Of a DNA stretch of 29,192 nucleotides, positions 2,796 through 15,051 are shown piece by piece. The translations under genes and the position numbers were made by a program. The first letter of the stretch is position 1; each line of letters starts with the position of its first letter. The stretch comes from a virus. Taxonomy: Duplodnaviria; Heunggongvirae; Uroviricota; Caudoviricetes. The stretch lies in the IMG/VR virus record IMGVR_UViG_2700989521_000016. The stretch is one strand, 5' to 3'. The notes below the pieces were generated by a model. The model searched no databases. It worked only from the letters and a program-made list of their open reading frames with translations, and had not been told where the DNA came from.

Positions 2796-3737
2796 TTACA
2801 TAGATGTTTCGTTTAATTCTTCCCGACGAACGCTGTAAACGTCGGTGGCTTTTGCCAGCAGTTCGTCATCATCTGAAAGTTTTTGTGCAATGTATTTGTA
2901 AGCCTTATCCAGTTCGGAGACAGTGCTGTAATTCATCGCTGCGCTGGTAAAGGCCATTAGCATTTCTTCTGGAGCACGGCTATCCGCTTTACGCGTTTGC
3001 TCATCAGGCTTTTTCACTTGTTTAGCGTTGATCAGACTGTTCATTCCCGCAGCAGTGATCGTTTGCGGAGTAATGTCTCGCTCAACGCGCGGTGCCGTTT
3101 CCTGTAATTCGTCTGGTGTGTAGACGCCCATGATTACGTCAGGACAGTGCAAGCGAGACCAGCGTTTTGTCGCAAGGTATGCGAGTTGTTGTTTCGGATC
3201 ACTGGCCCAAAGTGTGGAGTTTCTTACCTGTGCTTGAGACAGCATTAACTCAAGCACTCGAGGTTGATCCTCGCCCTTCATGGTTGCCCATACGCGAACA
3301 CCGCAACCTTCTTCGTCTTTTAGAGTCCAGCCTGGTGCGATATACGGATTGCCGTTTTTGGATGTTTTCTCAACAAACTTACCGATCACGCGTTCCCACG
3401 GCCCGAACCACTCGTAGTTGATGCGATCTTTTGTTGGCGACATTGTTGAGATAACTGCGTTTACTAATTGGGCTTCATAACCTAGCGTGCCGTTCACAAC
3501 ATGGGTTTTCTGAGCCACGGCAAACGGGTTCATTCCCCACTGCGCAGCCTGCATTGCCACGGCCATGCAATCAGCTGGTTTCCCGGCGAGGTGCGCCGGT
3601 ACCGTTACGCGGCTTTGCGCCATTACCTCGGCGAATTTCATCAGTTGGTTCAAGCCGTCTGGGCTGAAAATAGTTGCAGCAGTTCCAGCGATTGCTGTGT
3701 CTACTGGTGCGTTGATGTTTGCGATGTCGTTGCTCAT
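2796..3737 (-). CDS. bet: Bet/RecT-family single-strand annealing recombinase
   Basis: 313 aa from ATG at 3735-3737, which overlaps the exonuclease stop (ATGA); shares the ERDITP motif and surrounding pattern with lambda Bet from memory; the ORF track's alternative start at 3764 would overlap the upstream gene by 30 bp. Confidence 0.85.
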   Translation of the reverse strand: MSNDIANINAPVDTAIAGTAATIFSPDGLNQLMKFAEVMAQSRVTVPAHLAGKPADCMAVAMQAAQWGMNPFAVAQKTHVVNGTLGYEAQLVNAVISTMSPTKDRINYEWFGPWERVIGKFVEKTSKNGNPYIAPGWTLKDEEGCGVRVWATMKGEDQPRVLELMLSQAQVRNSTLWASDPKQQLAYLATKRWSRLHCPDVIMGVYTPDELQETAPRVERDITPQTITAAGMNSLINAKQVKKPDEQTRKADSRAPEEMLMAFTSAAMNYSTVSELDKAYKYIAQKLSDDDELLAKATDVYSVRREELNETSM

Positions 3738-4555
3738 ATGTACATATCCTGTTTGCGTGCCCACTCAGGGCGTTTAATGATTTCCACACCGCCCCATTCA
3801 TCATTGATGCGGCATTCGTGATAGGTATTCAGATCCCGGCGGAACAGAGTGTGCCCGGCATCGACATCCTGCGCATCCAGCTCGAACACGCGTACCGGAT
3901 ACCGACCACAATCAATGCTTTCGCTCACGGCAAGAAAGAAAAAACCATGCGGCTGACCAGTAACCCTCATTGCGCCTTCGCGGTACATTGCGTCCTGCAC
4001 GTGGTAGCGGAATTCCTCGATGTGGCGTGCAAAACGGTCCATATCCGCAACCTTTTTCACGTCGACGATCACGTTGTGCTCGTTCAGCCATTTGTCTGGA
4101 CGAATTCGGCACAACTCACCCGTTTCTTCATCGTTCCAGTACATTGATGCTTCGCAGTAACCAGGTGCTTCCAACATCCAGCGTGCCGCCGGATGAGCCA
4201 TTGCGCTATCACGCATCAGCTCCAGTTTTCGCCACTGCTCGACATCAAGTACCGCAATACCCATATCCGTCACATCACGAAGAAATGCTTCTTCGTCAGC
4301 TTTACCTTGTTTTGTCCGACGATCGAATTTCGGTGAAACGATGAAGCGTTTGTCGAATTCTCCAGGTTCCAGAAGCAGGCAGTGCAATGCGGTTCCCATA
4401 TCCAGTGCAGACTTTTTCTCTTCGTCTTCTGGTGCTGCCTGAACCCATTTAAGAAGCGCCGGATTCTTGGCAACCATGTCCAGTTGCGACTTACTCACGC
4501 CGTCACCGGCGTGGTAGTCTTCGTTGCTGATGTCGAAATAAATTCCCGGTTTCAT
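3734..4555 (-). CDS. PD-(D/E)XK-family exonuclease, recombination partner of Bet (RecE-like/DUF3799-type, not lambda Exo-like)
   Basis: 273 aa; position immediately upstream of bet; D...D-x-K-type motifs (RIRPDKW...IVDVKK); no resemblance to lambda Exo/YqaJ as recalled. Confidence 0.75.
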   Translation of the reverse strand: MKPGIYFDISNEDYHAGDGVSKSQLDMVAKNPALLKWVQAAPEDEEKKSALDMGTALHCLLLEPGEFDKRFIVSPKFDRRTKQGKADEEAFLRDVTDMGIAVLDVEQWRKLELMRDSAMAHPAARWMLEAPGYCEASMYWNDEETGELCRIRPDKWLNEHNVIVDVKKVADMDRFARHIEEFRYHVQDAMYREGAMRVTGQPHGFFFLAVSESIDCGRYPVRVFELDAQDVDAGHTLFRRDLNTYHECRINDEWGGVEIIKRPEWARKQDMYI

Positions 4556-5025: not shown

Positions 5026-5102
5026 TTACCGTTGAGGTAATAATTATGCGTATTTGGTTTGATGTCAATAGATATGAGTTGAAAAAATTACCTGCAAGGT
5101 AA
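5026..5102. promoter_or_regulatory. PL-like leftward early promoter region with two perfect TTACC-N5-GGTAA operator palindromes (5026-5040, 5088-5102)
   Basis: Perfect palindromes TTACCGTTGAGGTAA and TTACCTGCAAGGTAA read directly; minus-strand TTGACA (5063-5068) and CATAAT/TAATTA-like -10 candidates lie between and adjacent to them; exact -35/-10 spacing not resolved. Confidence 0.6.
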
Positions 5103-5159: not shown

Positions 5160-5744
5160 TTATTGTTTGTTTTTTTCGTTCTGGTTGATGACAAATTCAA
5201 TGTAACTTTCGATCTTTGCTTTCTCGGTTTCAGGTAACAATGCGTAGCGCGAGCGGTCATAGTTGATAGTTGCAGGGTCGTGCGGGTGAATCAGTAGTTC
5301 ATATCCGTGACGCCCGAATGCAGATGCAACATTCTCCAGAGTGGAAATGGAAACGCTGACCTCATTGTTTAACAGGCGGCTGATTGTCACCTGGGCGACG
5401 CCGGATGCGCGGTGAAGTTTTCCCTGAGTTGAAAGGTCGCGGCTTTCACTCATCCAGCGTTCCAGGTTGTGAGCCGCCAGCTGACCAATGTCGCTTGGTC
5501 CAACAGGCTGAAAACCCTCCTGAGAAAGCGAGCGATCGATATCAAGCCAGTTACGTGGTTTATTGGCGGCAGCTTCAATTTTTCGCGCAACCTGGTCGCC
5601 GATAACCTTCTTGCCAAGAGCCCAGCGGTTTACCAGATTTGCCTGAGTTCCAAGTTTTTCTGCCATCCGCGTCTGAACACCATTGAATTCACGGTCGATC
5701 AAGTCGTTGAGATTTTGCCTGCGGACGTCCTGGATACTTTTCAT
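5160..5744 (-). CDS. Prophage repressor candidate with two tandem XRE-type helix-turn-helix domains and no recognisable S24 peptidase domain
   Basis: 194 aa; two HTH-like segments (MAEKLGTQANLVNRWALGKK...; ASGVAQVTISRLLNNEVSVSISTLENVASAFG); divergent from Cro-like gene with operator palindromes between them. Confidence 0.75.
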   Translation of the reverse strand: MKSIQDVRRQNLNDLIDREFNGVQTRMAEKLGTQANLVNRWALGKKVIGDQVARKIEAAANKPRNWLDIDRSLSQEGFQPVGPSDIGQLAAHNLERWMSESRDLSTQGKLHRASGVAQVTISRLLNNEVSVSISTLENVASAFGRHGYELLIHPHDPATINYDRSRYALLPETEKAKIESYIEFVINQNEKNKQ

Positions 5745-5799
5745 TTTCTGGAAAATCGCCTCATATATGAATCAGTAGATGATTCAATTTAAAGCAATA

Positions 5800-5862
5800 T
5801 TACCCAACAGGTAAATGCACCCCATAGGTAACTATCCTTGATTTTTGTTACCTTATGGGTGA
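5800..5862. promoter_or_regulatory. Tripartite operator region between repressor and Cro-like genes (sites 5800-5814 perfect, 5817-5831 imperfect, 5848-5862 9/10)
   Basis: TTACCCAACAGGTAA, GCACCCCATAGGTAA, TTACCTTATGGGTGA read directly; TTGATT -35-like hexamer at 5837-5842 upstream of the Cro-like gene. Confidence 0.65.
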
Positions 5863-5898
5863 ATATTTATTATCTGAAATAAATATCAGGCAATAGCT

Positions 5899-6129
5899 AT
5901 GAGCGATAACGGACATTTCGATTTCAAAAAGCACTGGCTTGCACTTACTCCGGATGAGCGTGAAGCCTTCGCACAGGAAGCCGGAACGACGAGTCACTAT
6001 ATCCAGACTCACTTAACAGGTAAGCGCAAAATGACAGGTAAAGTATTGATGAATGGGCTTTTTAAAGCCTGTAAAACAAGACAATGGCTGCGCTCAAAAG
6101 CAGAACTGGCATACTTCTTCTACTCATGA
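5899..6129 (+). CDS. Cro-like / YdaS-like small DNA-binding regulator
   Basis: 76 aa; position divergent from repressor; pattern resembles Cro/CI-type HTH (EAFAQEAGTTSHYIQTHLTGKRKM); weak SD. Confidence 0.65.
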   Translation: MSDNGHFDFKKHWLALTPDEREAFAQEAGTTSHYIQTHLTGKRKMTGKVLMNGLFKACKTRQWLRSKAELAYFFYS

Positions 6130-6150: not shown

Positions 6151-6173
6151 AGACCGCCATCCGGCGGTCTTTT
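6151..6173 (+). terminator. Rho-independent terminator after the Cro-like gene (tR1-like position)
   Basis: Stem GACCGCC/GGCGGTC (6151-6168, loop ATC) followed by TTTT (6169-6172). Confidence 0.65.
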
Positions 6174-6279
6174 CATATCTATTCGCACCTTAAAGGTAAT
6201 AAAAAACCAAATCTGGTTGATCTTTTTTTTGTGTCAGCACAAAATAACCGTAATCCCAATACTAATAACAGGGCTTACC

Positions 6280-6480
6280 ATGGAAATCATTACACGTATT
6301 GATGCCGCAAAGCGCGGACTTAAACGCTACTACACCGGAAAACCATGTAAGCACGGACATGACAGTGAACGCTGGGTTTACAACGGACACTGTGTTGAGT
6401 GCACCATGGAATCAAACCGTCGCATCAGGGCAGAGATTAAGCAGATCATGATTAATTCCTCCCCACAACATTCAAGCTGA
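6280..6480 (+). CDS. Small zinc-ribbon-like protein (66 aa) in the cII-equivalent position
   Basis: ATG at 6280; C-x-H-G-H ... C-x2-C motif (KPCKHGHDSERWVYNGHCVEC); the ORF track's longer version begins with TTG at 6217 and was not preferred; weak RBS. Confidence 0.45.
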   Translation: MEIITRIDAAKRGLKRYYTGKPCKHGHDSERWVYNGHCVECTMESNRRIRAEIKQIMINSSPQHSS

Positions 6481-8130: not shown

Positions 8131-8207
8131 TTACCTTCTGGGTAATGAGATATTCTAAAATCTATTGATTTCGTGTCTTATGTGGTTTTTAATTACCTCA
8201 GGGGTAA
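8131..8207. promoter_or_regulatory. Promoter region of the nin-like operon with two perfect TTACC-N5-GGTAA palindromes (8131-8145, 8193-8207)
   Basis: TTACCTTCTGGGTAA and TTACCTCAGGGGTAA read directly; TTGATT (8165-8170) then 17 bp then TTTAAT (8188-8193) looks like a sigma70 promoter; second palindrome overlaps the -10/RBS of the gene starting at 8211. Confidence 0.6.
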
Positions 8208-8210
8208 ATC

Positions 8211-8555
8211 ATGAGAAAGCAGATACAGGCTCTTGGTCGACTCAAAACAGGCCAGATGAACAAAACAGAATCTGCGTATTGCCAGCACCTTGAGCAGCGT
8301 AAACGTGCAGGGGAAATCGCCTGGTATCGGTTCGAGGGTATCAAGCTGCGGCTGGCTGACAACACGTTCTATACGCCAGATTTCGCTGTGATGCTCGCCA
8401 CTGGTGAGATGGAACTGCATGAAGTGAAAGGTTTCTGGACCGACGACGCTAGGGTGAAAACCAAAGTCGCCGCAGATCAGTATCCGTTCCGAATCATCGG
8501 GGTAACGGTTAAGCCAAAGAAAGCAGGTGGCGGCTGGAATATCGAAGAGTTCTGA
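8211..8555 (+). CDS. Hypothetical protein, possible PD-(D/E)XK-fold nuclease-like
   Basis: 114 aa; pattern TPDFAV...ELHEVKG suggestive of a D...E-x-K motif; inference only. Confidence 0.6.
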   Translation: MRKQIQALGRLKTGQMNKTESAYCQHLEQRKRAGEIAWYRFEGIKLRLADNTFYTPDFAVMLATGEMELHEVKGFWTDDARVKTKVAADQYPFRIIGVTVKPKKAGGGWNIEEF

Positions 8556-11765: not shown

Positions 11766-11791
11766 GCCGCCAACTATGGCGGCTTTATTTT
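11766..11791 (+). terminator. Rho-independent terminator separating early/middle genes from the packaging genes
   Basis: Stem GCCGCCA/TGGCGGC (11766-11783, loop ACTA) followed by TTTATTTT (11784-11791). Confidence 0.75.
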
Positions 11792-11802
11792 GCATGATAC
11801 TA

Positions 11803-11835
11803 TTACCACAACGGTAACTATTACCACGGTGGTTA
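11803..11835. promoter_or_regulatory. Two TTACC-N5-GGTAA-type palindromes directly upstream of the small terminase start (11803-11817 perfect, 11821-11835 9/10)
   Basis: TTACCACAACGGTAA and TTACCACGGTGGTTA read directly; second site abuts the terS ATG at 11835. Confidence 0.6.
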
Positions 11836-13993: not shown

Positions 13994-14350
13994 TTATTGC
14001 TCGCTTAGCTTCTGCTTCAGCAAGTAACCTTCGAGCATCCAGATTTTGTTTACAGCATTCTGCCGGGCAATCTTCCGACCAATTTCTGCATCAAAGTTTT
14101 CCTGGCTTGCACAGGCACTCTCTCCGGTGACGGTGAAGCCATTCTTCAGCACCAGTACGCAGAAAGTCAGGAGGTCTGTAGAGTTATGCGCTGTCCATGA
14201 ATCGCCAACGCCCATATTGGCGGCACGAATGCCGTCATAAGCAGTAAAGAAATGCTCTTCAAGAATGATGCTTTCGATATATTGAGGCGTAACTCGCGGT
14301 GCCGTTTTGCCTTTCTCAACGATTTCTTTTTCGATTTGCTGGTCGTTCAT
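13994..14350 (-). CDS. Moron-like hypothetical protein (118 aa) on the opposite strand to the late genes; possibly Gp49/Sf6 gp66-like family (tentative)
   Basis: ATG at 14348-14350 with AAGGTGAG SD; flanked by terminator hairpins on both sides; motif NGFTVTGESACASQENFDAEIGRKIA recalls a conserved phage family from memory. Confidence 0.7.
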   Translation of the reverse strand: MNDQQIEKEIVEKGKTAPRVTPQYIESIILEEHFFTAYDGIRAANMGVGDSWTAHNSTDLLTFCVLVLKNGFTVTGESACASQENFDAEIGRKIARQNAVNKIWMLEGYLLKQKLSEQ

Positions 14351-14361
14351 AATCTCACCTT

Positions 14362-14385
14362 AAAAAAATGCCCGGCGAACCGGGC
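14362..14385 (-). terminator. Strong rho-independent terminator between the tRNA and the moron gene
   Basis: Minus strand reads GCCCGG-UUCG-CCGGGC followed by A + UUUUUUU; U tract ends 12 nt before the moron start codon. Confidence 0.75.
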
Positions 14386-14547
14386 GAACTGGAAGCAATG
14401 AGTTCTTCCTTCCGTGGATGTACGGGTTTACAGCATGAAGTCATCGCAATGGCGTCCTGCTGTAAAAAGTGCGGTGATAGTCCTTCAAGGGAAACCATCA
14501 CCGCCAAGCACTGGAACTTCTGGCATCACGGTCCTTAGGCGTGATTC

Positions 14548-14624
14548 TGGCGTGGCATGCAGGATTCGAACCTGCGACCAACCGCTTAGAAGGCGGTTGC
14601 TCTGTCCGACTGAGCTAATGCCAC
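14548..14624 (-). tRNA. tRNA-Arg (anticodon UCU), phage-borne
   Basis: Manually folded 77-nt cloverleaf on minus strand: acceptor GTGGCAT/ATGCCAC, D-arm GCTC/GAGC, anticodon stem ACCGC/GCGGT with loop CTTCTAA (anticodon TCT), T-arm GCAGG-TTCGAAT-CCTGC identical to E. coli argU as recalled, discriminator G and encoded CCA. Confidence 0.8.
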
Positions 14625-14946
14625 AACGCTGAGAGCACTTAGCCTGTTAAGGCACCACACTTTGTCGCGGCTCCATAAATGCTCTCATCGTTGTACCCTC
14701 GTCTCTTCCGAGGCGTCACACCGAATCGCCGGGATGGTGAATCCCCGTGCGCGGAATAAAACCGCTCGACTTGCACATTCCGGCTACCTGGTTCGTTTGC
14801 CCGAGCAAGGGAGGGTGCCCCTTAAACGTATCCAGGCCGCTATCGGCGCATGTGCCATACGCCGTACTGCTCAAAATAAAAGCTCACTCCACCTGTTCAA
14901 TTTAACGACAAGCCAGTCAGGTTAGTAACCGGAATGAACTTTTTGG

Positions 14947-14961
14947 TTACCTGAAAGGTAA
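14947..14961. promoter_or_regulatory. Perfect TTACC-N5-GGTAA palindrome at the head of the virion-gene operon
   Basis: TTACCTGAAAGGTAA read directly, right half-site runs into GGTAATAAT (possible -10); a second GGTAATAAT at 15017-15025. Confidence 0.6.
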
Positions 14962-15051
14962 TAATTCGTGCGTTAAATGTCAACCGACTACGATAAATAA
15001 ATCATATGTGGTTAAATTGGTAATAATTTAATTGCGTACGGAGTCATTGAT

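Follow-up and report, generated by a model that had tools for sequence, protein, structure and literature searches.

The window analysed here, a 29,192-nt stretch of viral DNA (IMG/VR record IMGVR_UViG_2700989521_000016), is a phiV10/epsilon15-like (Uetakevirus) prophage with the gene order of phiV10, epsilon15 and SPC32H. We studied three repeats at positions 5800-5862, which lie in a 154-bp gap between a repressor gene (5160-5744, minus strand; product Rep) and a divergent gene in the position of cro (5899-6129, plus strand; hereafter the Cro-position gene). All three are copies of a 15-bp inverted repeat, TTACC-N5-GGTAA, and, judged from sequence, they are the operators of the phage repressor. 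The immunity region is 97% identical in DNA sequence to those of phiV10, the O157 typing phages 9 and 10, PAS61 and ZX5, and 540 of 5426 complete E. coli genomes contain a region of this type. The genes and sites at the locus are listed below; HTH stands for helix-turn-helix, and site matches are given out of the ten half-site positions.

5160-5744, minus strand: repressor gene (Rep), 194 aa; N-terminal HTH domain, second HTH-like middle domain, C-terminal oligomerisation region
5800-5814: site a, repressor-proximal; TTACCcaacaGGTAA; 10/10, no mismatches
5817-5831: site b; GCACCccataGGTAA; 8/10, two mismatches; left half GCACC matches at 3/5
5848-5862: site c; TTACCttatgGGTGA; 9/10, one mismatch; right half GGTGA
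5899-6129, plus strand: Cro-position gene, 76 aa; homologue of PhiV10p41 and epsilon15 gp39

Measured from centre to centre, sites a and b are 17 bp apart and sites b and c 31 bp. The first-pass annotation, made from the letters of the window, had described three adjacent sites of graded perfection between divergent repressor and cro-like genes, with a 15-bp motif unrelated to that of lambda. Our motif scan returned the sites at exactly these coordinates, within the 154-bp gap, and the motif is indeed unrelated to lambda's. The grades of the perfect site and of the 9/10 site were right; the middle site, put at 7/10, is an 8/10 match. The unequal quality of the sites is kept in 12 related loci and in 80 contigs and, being conserved, is probably functional; differential affinity and ordered occupancy are predicted from the sequence.

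The motif is strongly overrepresented in the window. With up to two mismatches allowed it occurs 26 times, against 7.1 ± 3.0 in dinucleotide-shuffled sequences, and none of 100 shuffles reached 26. Exact copies number seven, where base composition predicts 0.028; in 1000 shuffles their mean was 0.033 and their maximum 2. Besides site a, exact copies start at 5026, 5088, 8131, 8193, 11803 and 14947, and near-copies at 6185 and 11821. The six further exact copies are additional to the first-pass annotation. All seven exact copies adjoin promoter-like or terminator-like elements, and they and the two near-copies are non-coding. Two-mismatch matches within coding regions (4503, 6009 and others) were set aside as chance or coding conservation. 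A full-text literature search with the motif written in several forms gave nothing relevant.

The repressor and the Cro-position protein

Pfam finds a YdaS-like HTH at residues 21-61 of Rep and HTH_3 at residues 106-147. These HTH domains are its only matches, and no S24 peptidase or LexA-like cleavage domain was found in the Pfam search, which agrees with the initial description of a repressor that lacks one. Among proteins in the Protein Data Bank (PDB; phmmer search), Rep matches SPC32H Rep over residues 1-190 (5D50, E = 4e-42) and over residues 89-190 (5D4Z, E = 4e-20), and its C-terminal part aligns with the SPC32H Rep oligomerisation region. Five homologues all carry the helix NLVNRW unchanged. 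The phiV10 repressor and ZX5 ORF21 are 100% identical to Rep. Overexpression of ZX5 ORF21 abolished free phage and brought down the transcripts of endolysin and holin by 99.97-99.99%; operators are not mapped in the ZX5 paper (PMC9782041).

The Cro-position protein matches phrog_35, annotated as 'transcriptional repressor' (E = 1.5e-11). It has no Pfam match even at E = 5, no NCBIfam match and no PDB sequence match at E = 10. A single-sequence AlphaFold2 (AF2) model contains five helices with a predicted local distance difference test (pLDDT) score of 78; its best compact Foldseek matches are a YdaS N-domain and lambda-repressor-like proteins, at non-significant template modelling (TM) scores of 0.55-0.59. 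The residues AGTTSHYI and HL are kept in 11 of the 12 homologues, the exception having N for H. Position, PHROG family and this weak fold resemblance together indicate that it is probably an HTH protein and Cro-like.

Promoters overlapping the outer sites

We searched the gap for sigma-70-like promoters, with the following result.

5838-5873, plus strand: PR-like rightward early promoter, predicted to drive the Cro-position gene; -35 TTGATT 5838-5843, -10 GAATAT 5861-5866
5845-5850 and 5868-5873, plus strand: overlapping alternative to the PR-like promoter, TTGTTA and TATTAT; score 10.6, the higher of the two
5786-5815, minus strand: PRM-like leftward promoter, a tentative candidate; -35 TTTACC 5815 to 5810, 18 bp, -10 TAAATT 5791 to 5786

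The two outer sites thus overlap predicted divergent promoters. The rightward one is well supported by its TTGATT, which is invariant in 12/12 loci, lies 3-4 bp to the left of site c and pairs over a 16-17-bp spacer with GAATAT here and with AATAAT in epsilon15. Matrix scores of the rightward promoter range from 6.9 to 10.6, and in all loci the last base of its -10 falls between +119 and +123, counted from the rep ATG. Site c sits between the -35 and the -10 and fills the spacer, so that a protein bound there would exclude RNA polymerase. The leftward candidate is weak and conserved in position: its -35 lies within site a, which overlaps both this -35 and the spacer, and it is the best or near-best candidate at the same place in 12/12 loci (score 6.6-8.5); no other leftward candidate keeps its position. 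A leftward promoter with an operator at the last base of its -10, the arrangement found in the cassettes described below, was sought at sites a and b and discarded, as no acceptable -10 is present. Over the whole window, 5 of the 12 best sigma-70-like matches are no more than 70 bp from a site.

Conservation of the sites across related loci

The comparison took in 12 loci spread over eight genera: the window, phiV10, Enterobacter phages Tyrion and BUCT554, Klebsiella phage BUCT711, epsilon15 and six prophages (Superficieibacter, Erwinia, Klebsiella, two of Citrobacter, and Scandinavium). Rep identity among them spans 41-100%, and across clades the Cro-position protein is more conserved than Rep. 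Site a is perfect in all 12, at +54 to +56 from the rep ATG, and the distance from a to b is always 17 bp. Site b is perfect in the epsilon15 and Klebsiella clades and reads GCACC or GTACC in the phiV10 clade and Scandinavium. The distance from b to c is 30-31 bp, and site c is imperfect in 12/12 loci. Its defect lies in the right half in the phiV10 clade (GGTGA) and in the left half in the epsilon15 clade (TCACC) and in Klebsiella (ACACC); TCACC and GGTGA represent one and the same base change in opposite halves. Half-sites and positions are kept, while the 5-bp spacers vary freely among the loci. The unchanged half-site is matched by the conserved recognition helices (NLVNRW in Rep; AGTTSHYI/HL in the Cro-position protein).

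In the E. coli, Salmonella and Klebsiella clades the Rep proteins are only 41-45% identical, yet they have the same NLVNRW and the same half-site; between clades Ant is 84-88% identical. From this pattern, the whole genus may form one immunity group, unlike the lambdoid phages; a possible cause of such frozen specificity is that 10-15 scattered operators hinder change.

A further 80 IMG/VR contigs (L019-L098), all with a Rep 100% identical to that of the window, served as a population sample rather than as added diversity. Counting as common any polymorphism with a minor allele of at least 5%, we found polymorphic columns at 0 of 70 half-site positions, 17 of 35 spacer positions and 66 of 926 other positions (spacer versus other columns, odds ratio 12, P = 2e-10, the contigs not being independent). 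The imperfect halves GCACC of site b and GGTGA of site c are likewise invariant. The operator spacers of the gap and the cassettes include 5805-5809, 5822-5826, 5853-5857, 5093-5097, 8136-8140 and 8198-8202. At site a all 15 bp, spacer included, are unchanged in 80/80 contigs. The spacer of site b has seven variants, among which C or T at the first base and A or G at the last occur in all four combinations, implying recurrent mutation; the distal site of the cassette at 8131-8207 has 26 spacer variants. One possible reading is that affinity is tuned through spacer bases that the protein would not contact, by analogy with the centre of the 434 operator.

Operator pairs at other promoters and in the late region

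The region of the three sites is not a self-contained tripartite unit: their motif recurs as 62-bp pairs at two promoters and in four further places. The two paired cassettes and the main sites in the late region are these.

5026-5102, minus strand: PL-like leftward early cassette; distal site 5088-5102, -35 TTGACA 5068 to 5063, -10 AATTAT 5045 to 5040, proximal site 5026-5040
8131-8207, plus strand: third cassette; distal site 8131-8145, -35 TTGATT 8165-8170, -10 TTTAAT 8188-8193, proximal site 8193-8207
11803-11835: terminase pair, 18 bp apart, before the small terminase gene; TTACCacaacGGTAA (10/10) and TTACCacggtGGTTA (9/10)
14947-14961: perfect site, overlapping the -10 of a strong leftward promoter-like element
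14983 to 14955, minus strand: this leftward promoter-like element; TTGACA 14983 to 14978, 17 bp, TACCTT 14960 to 14955

Both cassettes are built alike. A distal site is followed, after 19 bp, by a -35 embedded in the conserved CTATTGA; the -10 stands 17 bp further on, and its final T also serves as the opening base of the proximal site. In the window the paired sites of both are all 10/10 and stand 62 bp apart; perfection is hence not peculiar to the repressor-gene side of the gap. The PL-like cassette (score 11.3) is predicted to drive the recombination genes; in 12/12 loci its TTGACA is invariant and its sites are 61-63 bp apart. The third cassette follows the replication genes and precedes a DUF1064/resolvase-like gene (8211-8555). 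Its two sites stand 61-62 bp apart in 12/12 loci, and in the 75 of 80 contigs that were scored the distance is 62 bp without exception.

Orthologues of the terminase pair lie at 87 and 105 in phiV10, and SPC32H has one at 12. A terminator-like hairpin at about 11767-11790 precedes the pair, and the A of the ATG at 11835 is also the last base of the second site. The phiV10 record starts the small terminase at an upstream TTG, which would place the sites inside the coding region; the ATG is the more likely start, since its 198-aa product is close in length to that of the 197-aa SPC32H gene. The site at 14947 has orthologues at 3252 in phiV10 and 3175 in SPC32H. The promoter-like element that it overlaps scores 12.0, joint second highest in the window, and faces about 300 nt without an Rfam match, a tRNA-Arg(UCU) gene (14548-14624) and a gp49/Sf6-gp66-like gene (13994-14350). 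The region 13994-14983 would then be a repressor-controlled tRNA unit lying antisense within the late region. Rfam returned only the tRNA over the whole window.

Scans of the phiV10 and SPC32H genomes also found sites in the gap between the antirepressor gene ant and the tailspike gene, ahead of the lysis genes and ahead of the integrase gene. This distribution suggests that, in contrast to lambda CI, the repressor keeps most transcription units under its direct control.

Downstream of the Cro-position gene there is one more site, together with a second promoter-like element.

6185-6199: degenerate site, GCACCttaaaGGTAA, after the terminator (6151-6170) of the Cro-position gene
6217-6245, plus strand: second rightward promoter-like element; TTGATC 6217-6222, 17 bp, CAAAAT 6240-6245; score 9.1

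An equivalent of this site with one or two mismatches is found in 9/12 loci. In the 80 contigs its right half is invariant and its left half reads GTACC, GCACC, TCACC or TTACC. The TTGATC/CAAAAT element, 17 bp past the site, is conserved and precedes a 66-aa gene and the replication genes. A promoter-like sequence at 6153 to 6126 (minus strand), 3' of the Cro-position gene, was considered as a PRE-like candidate and dropped.

Two observations concern neighbouring genes. The 66-aa gene (6280-6480), in the position of cII, encodes a CxHxH...CxxC pattern, belongs to phrog_1081 (unknown function) and has weak matches to the endonuclease VII family. The exonuclease (3734-4555) and RecT (2796-3764) genes are separate in the window, as in Tyrion, and the phiV10 record shows a single 'recET fusion' (p37) over the equivalent of 2796-4555; the two genes may truly be fused in phiV10, or the difference may come from annotation or a frameshift.

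The antirepressor Ant and LexA

The Rep-Ant switch of SPC32H was reportedly described by Kim and Ryu in J Virol in 2013 and by Kim et al. in PNAS in 2016. In the earlier of these studies ant is said to be repressed by LexA, and Ant of the SPC32H type is said to be structurally distinct from earlier antirepressors. According to two later papers that cite this work, SPC32H Rep has an N-terminal DNA-binding, a middle dimerisation and a C-terminal tetramerisation domain, and the tetrameric antirepressor Ant disassembles the Rep tetramer (PMC9986798, PMC9638917). The tetramer binds palindromes, the two DNA-binding domains on each palindrome coming from different dimers, and the dimer alone binds DNA weakly (PMC9638917).

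We looked for the corresponding gene in the closest relatives of the window and found Ant homologues 84-88% identical to SPC32H Ant, each adjoining a consensus LexA box. In phiV10 the homologue is p24, 88% identical, beside the box CTGTATAAATACACAG; in E. coli NZ_AP022036.1, whose immunity region is 99.7% identical to that of the window, an 84% identical Ant adjoins CTGTATGAATATACAG. LexA boxes in the window itself are no more frequent than chance, and none is sensibly placed. With no convincing box in the window, ant lies outside; colinearity with phiV10 places it about 3 kb past the 3' end. The ant/tailspike gap (L099 2896-2964; L018 20822-20891; L017 20013-20027) holds a LexA box together with a repressor-type site. 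This site is a perfect match in SPC32H and the nearest E. coli relative, and in phiV10 its left half deviates (TCACC..GGTAA). By its position there, the site may allow the repressor to control ant or the tailspike gene as well.

Proposed mode of control and alternatives

Overall, the three sites very likely make up the right-hand operator of a prophage of the phiV10/epsilon15 type, within a Rep-based set of operators that extends over the genome. The analysis itself establishes where the sites are, their statistics and their conservation, the homology of the proteins, and an ant gene with its LexA box in the nearest relatives. The repressor function, the tetramer and the mechanism of Ant come from the literature; which protein occupies each site, the order of occupancy, bridging between sites and the location of the repressor-gene promoter are what we infer. 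Rep would bind the three sites through its N-terminal HTH domain, and the Cro-position protein would probably bind them too. At site c, probably with site b, Rep would block transcription of the Cro-position and replication genes, and the overlap of site a with the leftward promoter would lead to negative autoregulation of rep; site b lies between sites a and c. By homology with SPC32H Rep, Rep would act as a tetramer with two DNA-binding units, so that one tetramer could hold two operators. Upon induction, LexA-controlled Ant, encoded outside the window, would dismantle the Rep tetramers. The right-operator sites would form one node of the set, which would also include the PL-like promoter, the third-cassette promoter behind the replication genes, and the sites at the entry to the late region.

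The spacings suit bridging, as 31 and 62 bp are in phase and correspond to 3 and 6 turns of about 10.3 bp, which fits contact on one face of the helix. In particular, the 62-bp cassettes suggest that one repressor tetramer bridges both sites across the promoter. The suboptimal site c may mean that the rightward promoter is released first as Rep is titrated, or a preference on the part of the Cro-position protein may lie behind it.

Several points weigh against this proposal. Binding and start sites in this phage are predicted from sequence. The 17- and 48-bp spacings are out of helical phase, and hence not every pair of sites could be bridged on one face. There are two overlapping rightward candidates, and three relatives lack the key A of the better-scoring -10, TATTAT. 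The candidate leftward promoter is weak (score 6.6-8.5) and, if it is right, rep would be silenced through the strongest site, a, at a stage when the weaker site c does not yet repress the rightward promoter, barring a change of effective affinities through tetramer bridging. The evidence that the Cro-position protein is an HTH protein is weak, and Ant, lying outside the window, was examined in close relatives.

The grading of the sites might be set mainly by the Cro-position protein, which would prefer site a and shut off the repressor first in lytic growth; the TCACC or GGTGA of site c would then lower the affinity of that protein, and Rep may share the sites. Lambda Cro prefers OR3. The better conservation of the Cro-position protein relative to Rep, the putative recognition helix kept in 11/12 homologues, the PHROG transcriptional-repressor family and a site a that is perfect and invariant, spacer included, in 80/80 contigs all speak for this explanation. 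However, DNA binding by the Cro-position protein is putative, given the missing Pfam and PDB sequence matches and the non-significant fold matches of its model, and the paired sites at other promoters are all perfect. We therefore hold it to be unlikely as the main determinant of the grading.

In lambda OR the spacings are about 24 and 23 bp, the strongest site overlaps the lytic promoter and the weakest the repressor promoter. Were the present sites to work in that way, repressor dimers would fill them according to an intrinsic affinity set by the match to consensus, the best site repressing the lytic promoter first and the weakest giving late negative autoregulation. The presence of three unequal, conserved sites between divergent genes, one within the rightward promoter and one overlapping the leftward candidate, agrees with such a scheme. 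But the perfect site is on the repressor side and in 12/12 loci the promoter site c is the imperfect one, opposite to the affinities of lambda CI; the spacings are 17 and 31 bp; and Rep is without a cleavage domain. Moreover, SPC32H Rep is reported to be tetrameric, with the domains on a palindrome drawn from different dimers and a dimer that binds weakly (PMC9638917). A lambda-style mode of action thus seems quite improbable.

Binding of the motif by a host factor, or a role of it in replication, packaging or recombination, is hardly credible: the sites at the terminase end (11803-11835) and near diverse module boundaries would fit, but across hosts of eight genera the sites keep fixed places with respect to the -35 and -10 boxes of early promoters, the motif is conserved along with phage-encoded recognition helices, and the epsilon15 authors annotated it as repressor binding.

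Taken together with Rep as the protein that binds the set, the observations allow a broader reading, possible though doubtful, in which the repression logic of this phage family is unlike that of lambda. The tetramer would clamp pairs of operators at whole helical turns (31 and 62 bp), and Rep would exert direct control over almost every transcription unit, those of the late genes among them. Site c would be kept suboptimal through an A-to-G change that has arisen in opposite halves in two clades, and the rightward promoter would fire first when Ant titrates Rep. Affinity would be tuned by the uncontacted 5-bp spacers, which include the most polymorphic positions of the region. With some 10-15 scattered sites to preserve, the TTACC/NLVNRW code would be frozen across repressors only 41% identical and eight host genera, giving one immunity group.

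Part of this is known already. Both the Rep-Ant switch and the motif have precedents in SPC32H and epsilon15, and the genetic switch suggested in the first-pass annotation is not an unknown one: Rep is a homologue of SPC32H Rep (PDB 5D50, E = 4e-42), and the motif is annotated in epsilon15. What we add is modest, namely a promoter site that is always imperfect, the 31/62-bp phasing, a code shared at 41% identity and the hypervariable spacers. Operators between the repressor and cro-like genes are to be expected in a phage of a known Rep-Ant type; a conserved weak operator embedded in a promoter and a code shared by distant repressors come as a mild surprise. What silences phiV10-like prophages, and what fires first when the SOS response induces them through Ant, is defined by the operator set. 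Such prophages are found in about 10% of complete E. coli genomes, O157:H7 included, and alter the O antigen. The three right-operator sites, the two 62-bp paired cassettes and the late-gene sites provide a testable map.

Comparison with known systems

SPC32H, an epsilon15-like Salmonella phage, is the closest characterised system. Homology between the two Rep proteins extends over the full length (E = 4e-42); they have the same domain regions and no cleavage domain, and the two phages share gene order and TTACC-N5-GGTAA sites at the same places; the repressors differ in being only about 42% identical. In SPC32H and epsilon15 sites a and b are perfect and site c has the left half TCACC, whereas in the window site b has GCACC and site c the right half GGTGA. 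The left operator comprises three sites in epsilon15 and SPC32H and two in the window.

The GenBank record of epsilon15 (AY150271.2) contains 16-17-bp protein_bind features labelled 'repressor, lysogeny' with the same motif, reading ATTACC-N5-GGTAAT. They cover the left operator and a site upstream of the resolvase gene, which correspond to 5026-5102 and 8131-8145 of the window. Some copies are thus marked in epsilon15, but none of the three in the repressor/Cro-position gap, and the phiV10 record annotates no operators.

Ant can be likened, by its description, to Tum of coliphage 186, a LexA-controlled antirepressor of a non-cleavable repressor. Gifsy-1, Gifsy-3 and Fels-2 also have non-cleavable repressors, which are inactivated by small LexA-controlled antirepressors (PMC3121763). 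Rco of plasmid pLS20 has an N-terminal DNA-binding domain and a p53-like C-terminal tetramerisation domain, termed TetDloop; SPC32H Rep shares this fold, which is linked to DNA looping (PMC9986798). By this analogy the in-phase 31-bp and 62-bp pairs would fit a looping Rep, although Rco, unlike the phage protein, is a conjugation regulator of a Gram-positive plasmid.

With lambda, the window shares three palindromic sites between divergent repressor and cro-position genes, the outer ones overlapping promoters (in the window a well-supported rightward one and a weak leftward candidate), and further operator sets elsewhere; cooperativity or looping is likely. If the leftward promoter is right, site a would correspond to OR3, site b, about 45 bp upstream of the predicted start, to OR2, and site c to OR1. 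The OR1-OR2-OR3 analogy drawn at the outset therefore stands as to layout, with a site at the PR-like promoter, a site at the leftward candidate and one between them. It fails as to logic. The motif is unrelated, and the spacings, 17 and 30-31 bp in 12/12 loci, replace the even 23-24 bp of lambda. By consensus match the best site lies on the repressor side and not at the lytic promoter, with a perfect and c imperfect in 12/12 loci, so that the predicted strengths are opposite to those for CI. Rep, which has no S24 match, would be a tetramer inactivated by an antirepressor and not by RecA-stimulated cleavage, and its sites stand ahead of late genes as well as at early promoters, whereas those of lambda are confined to two early promoters.

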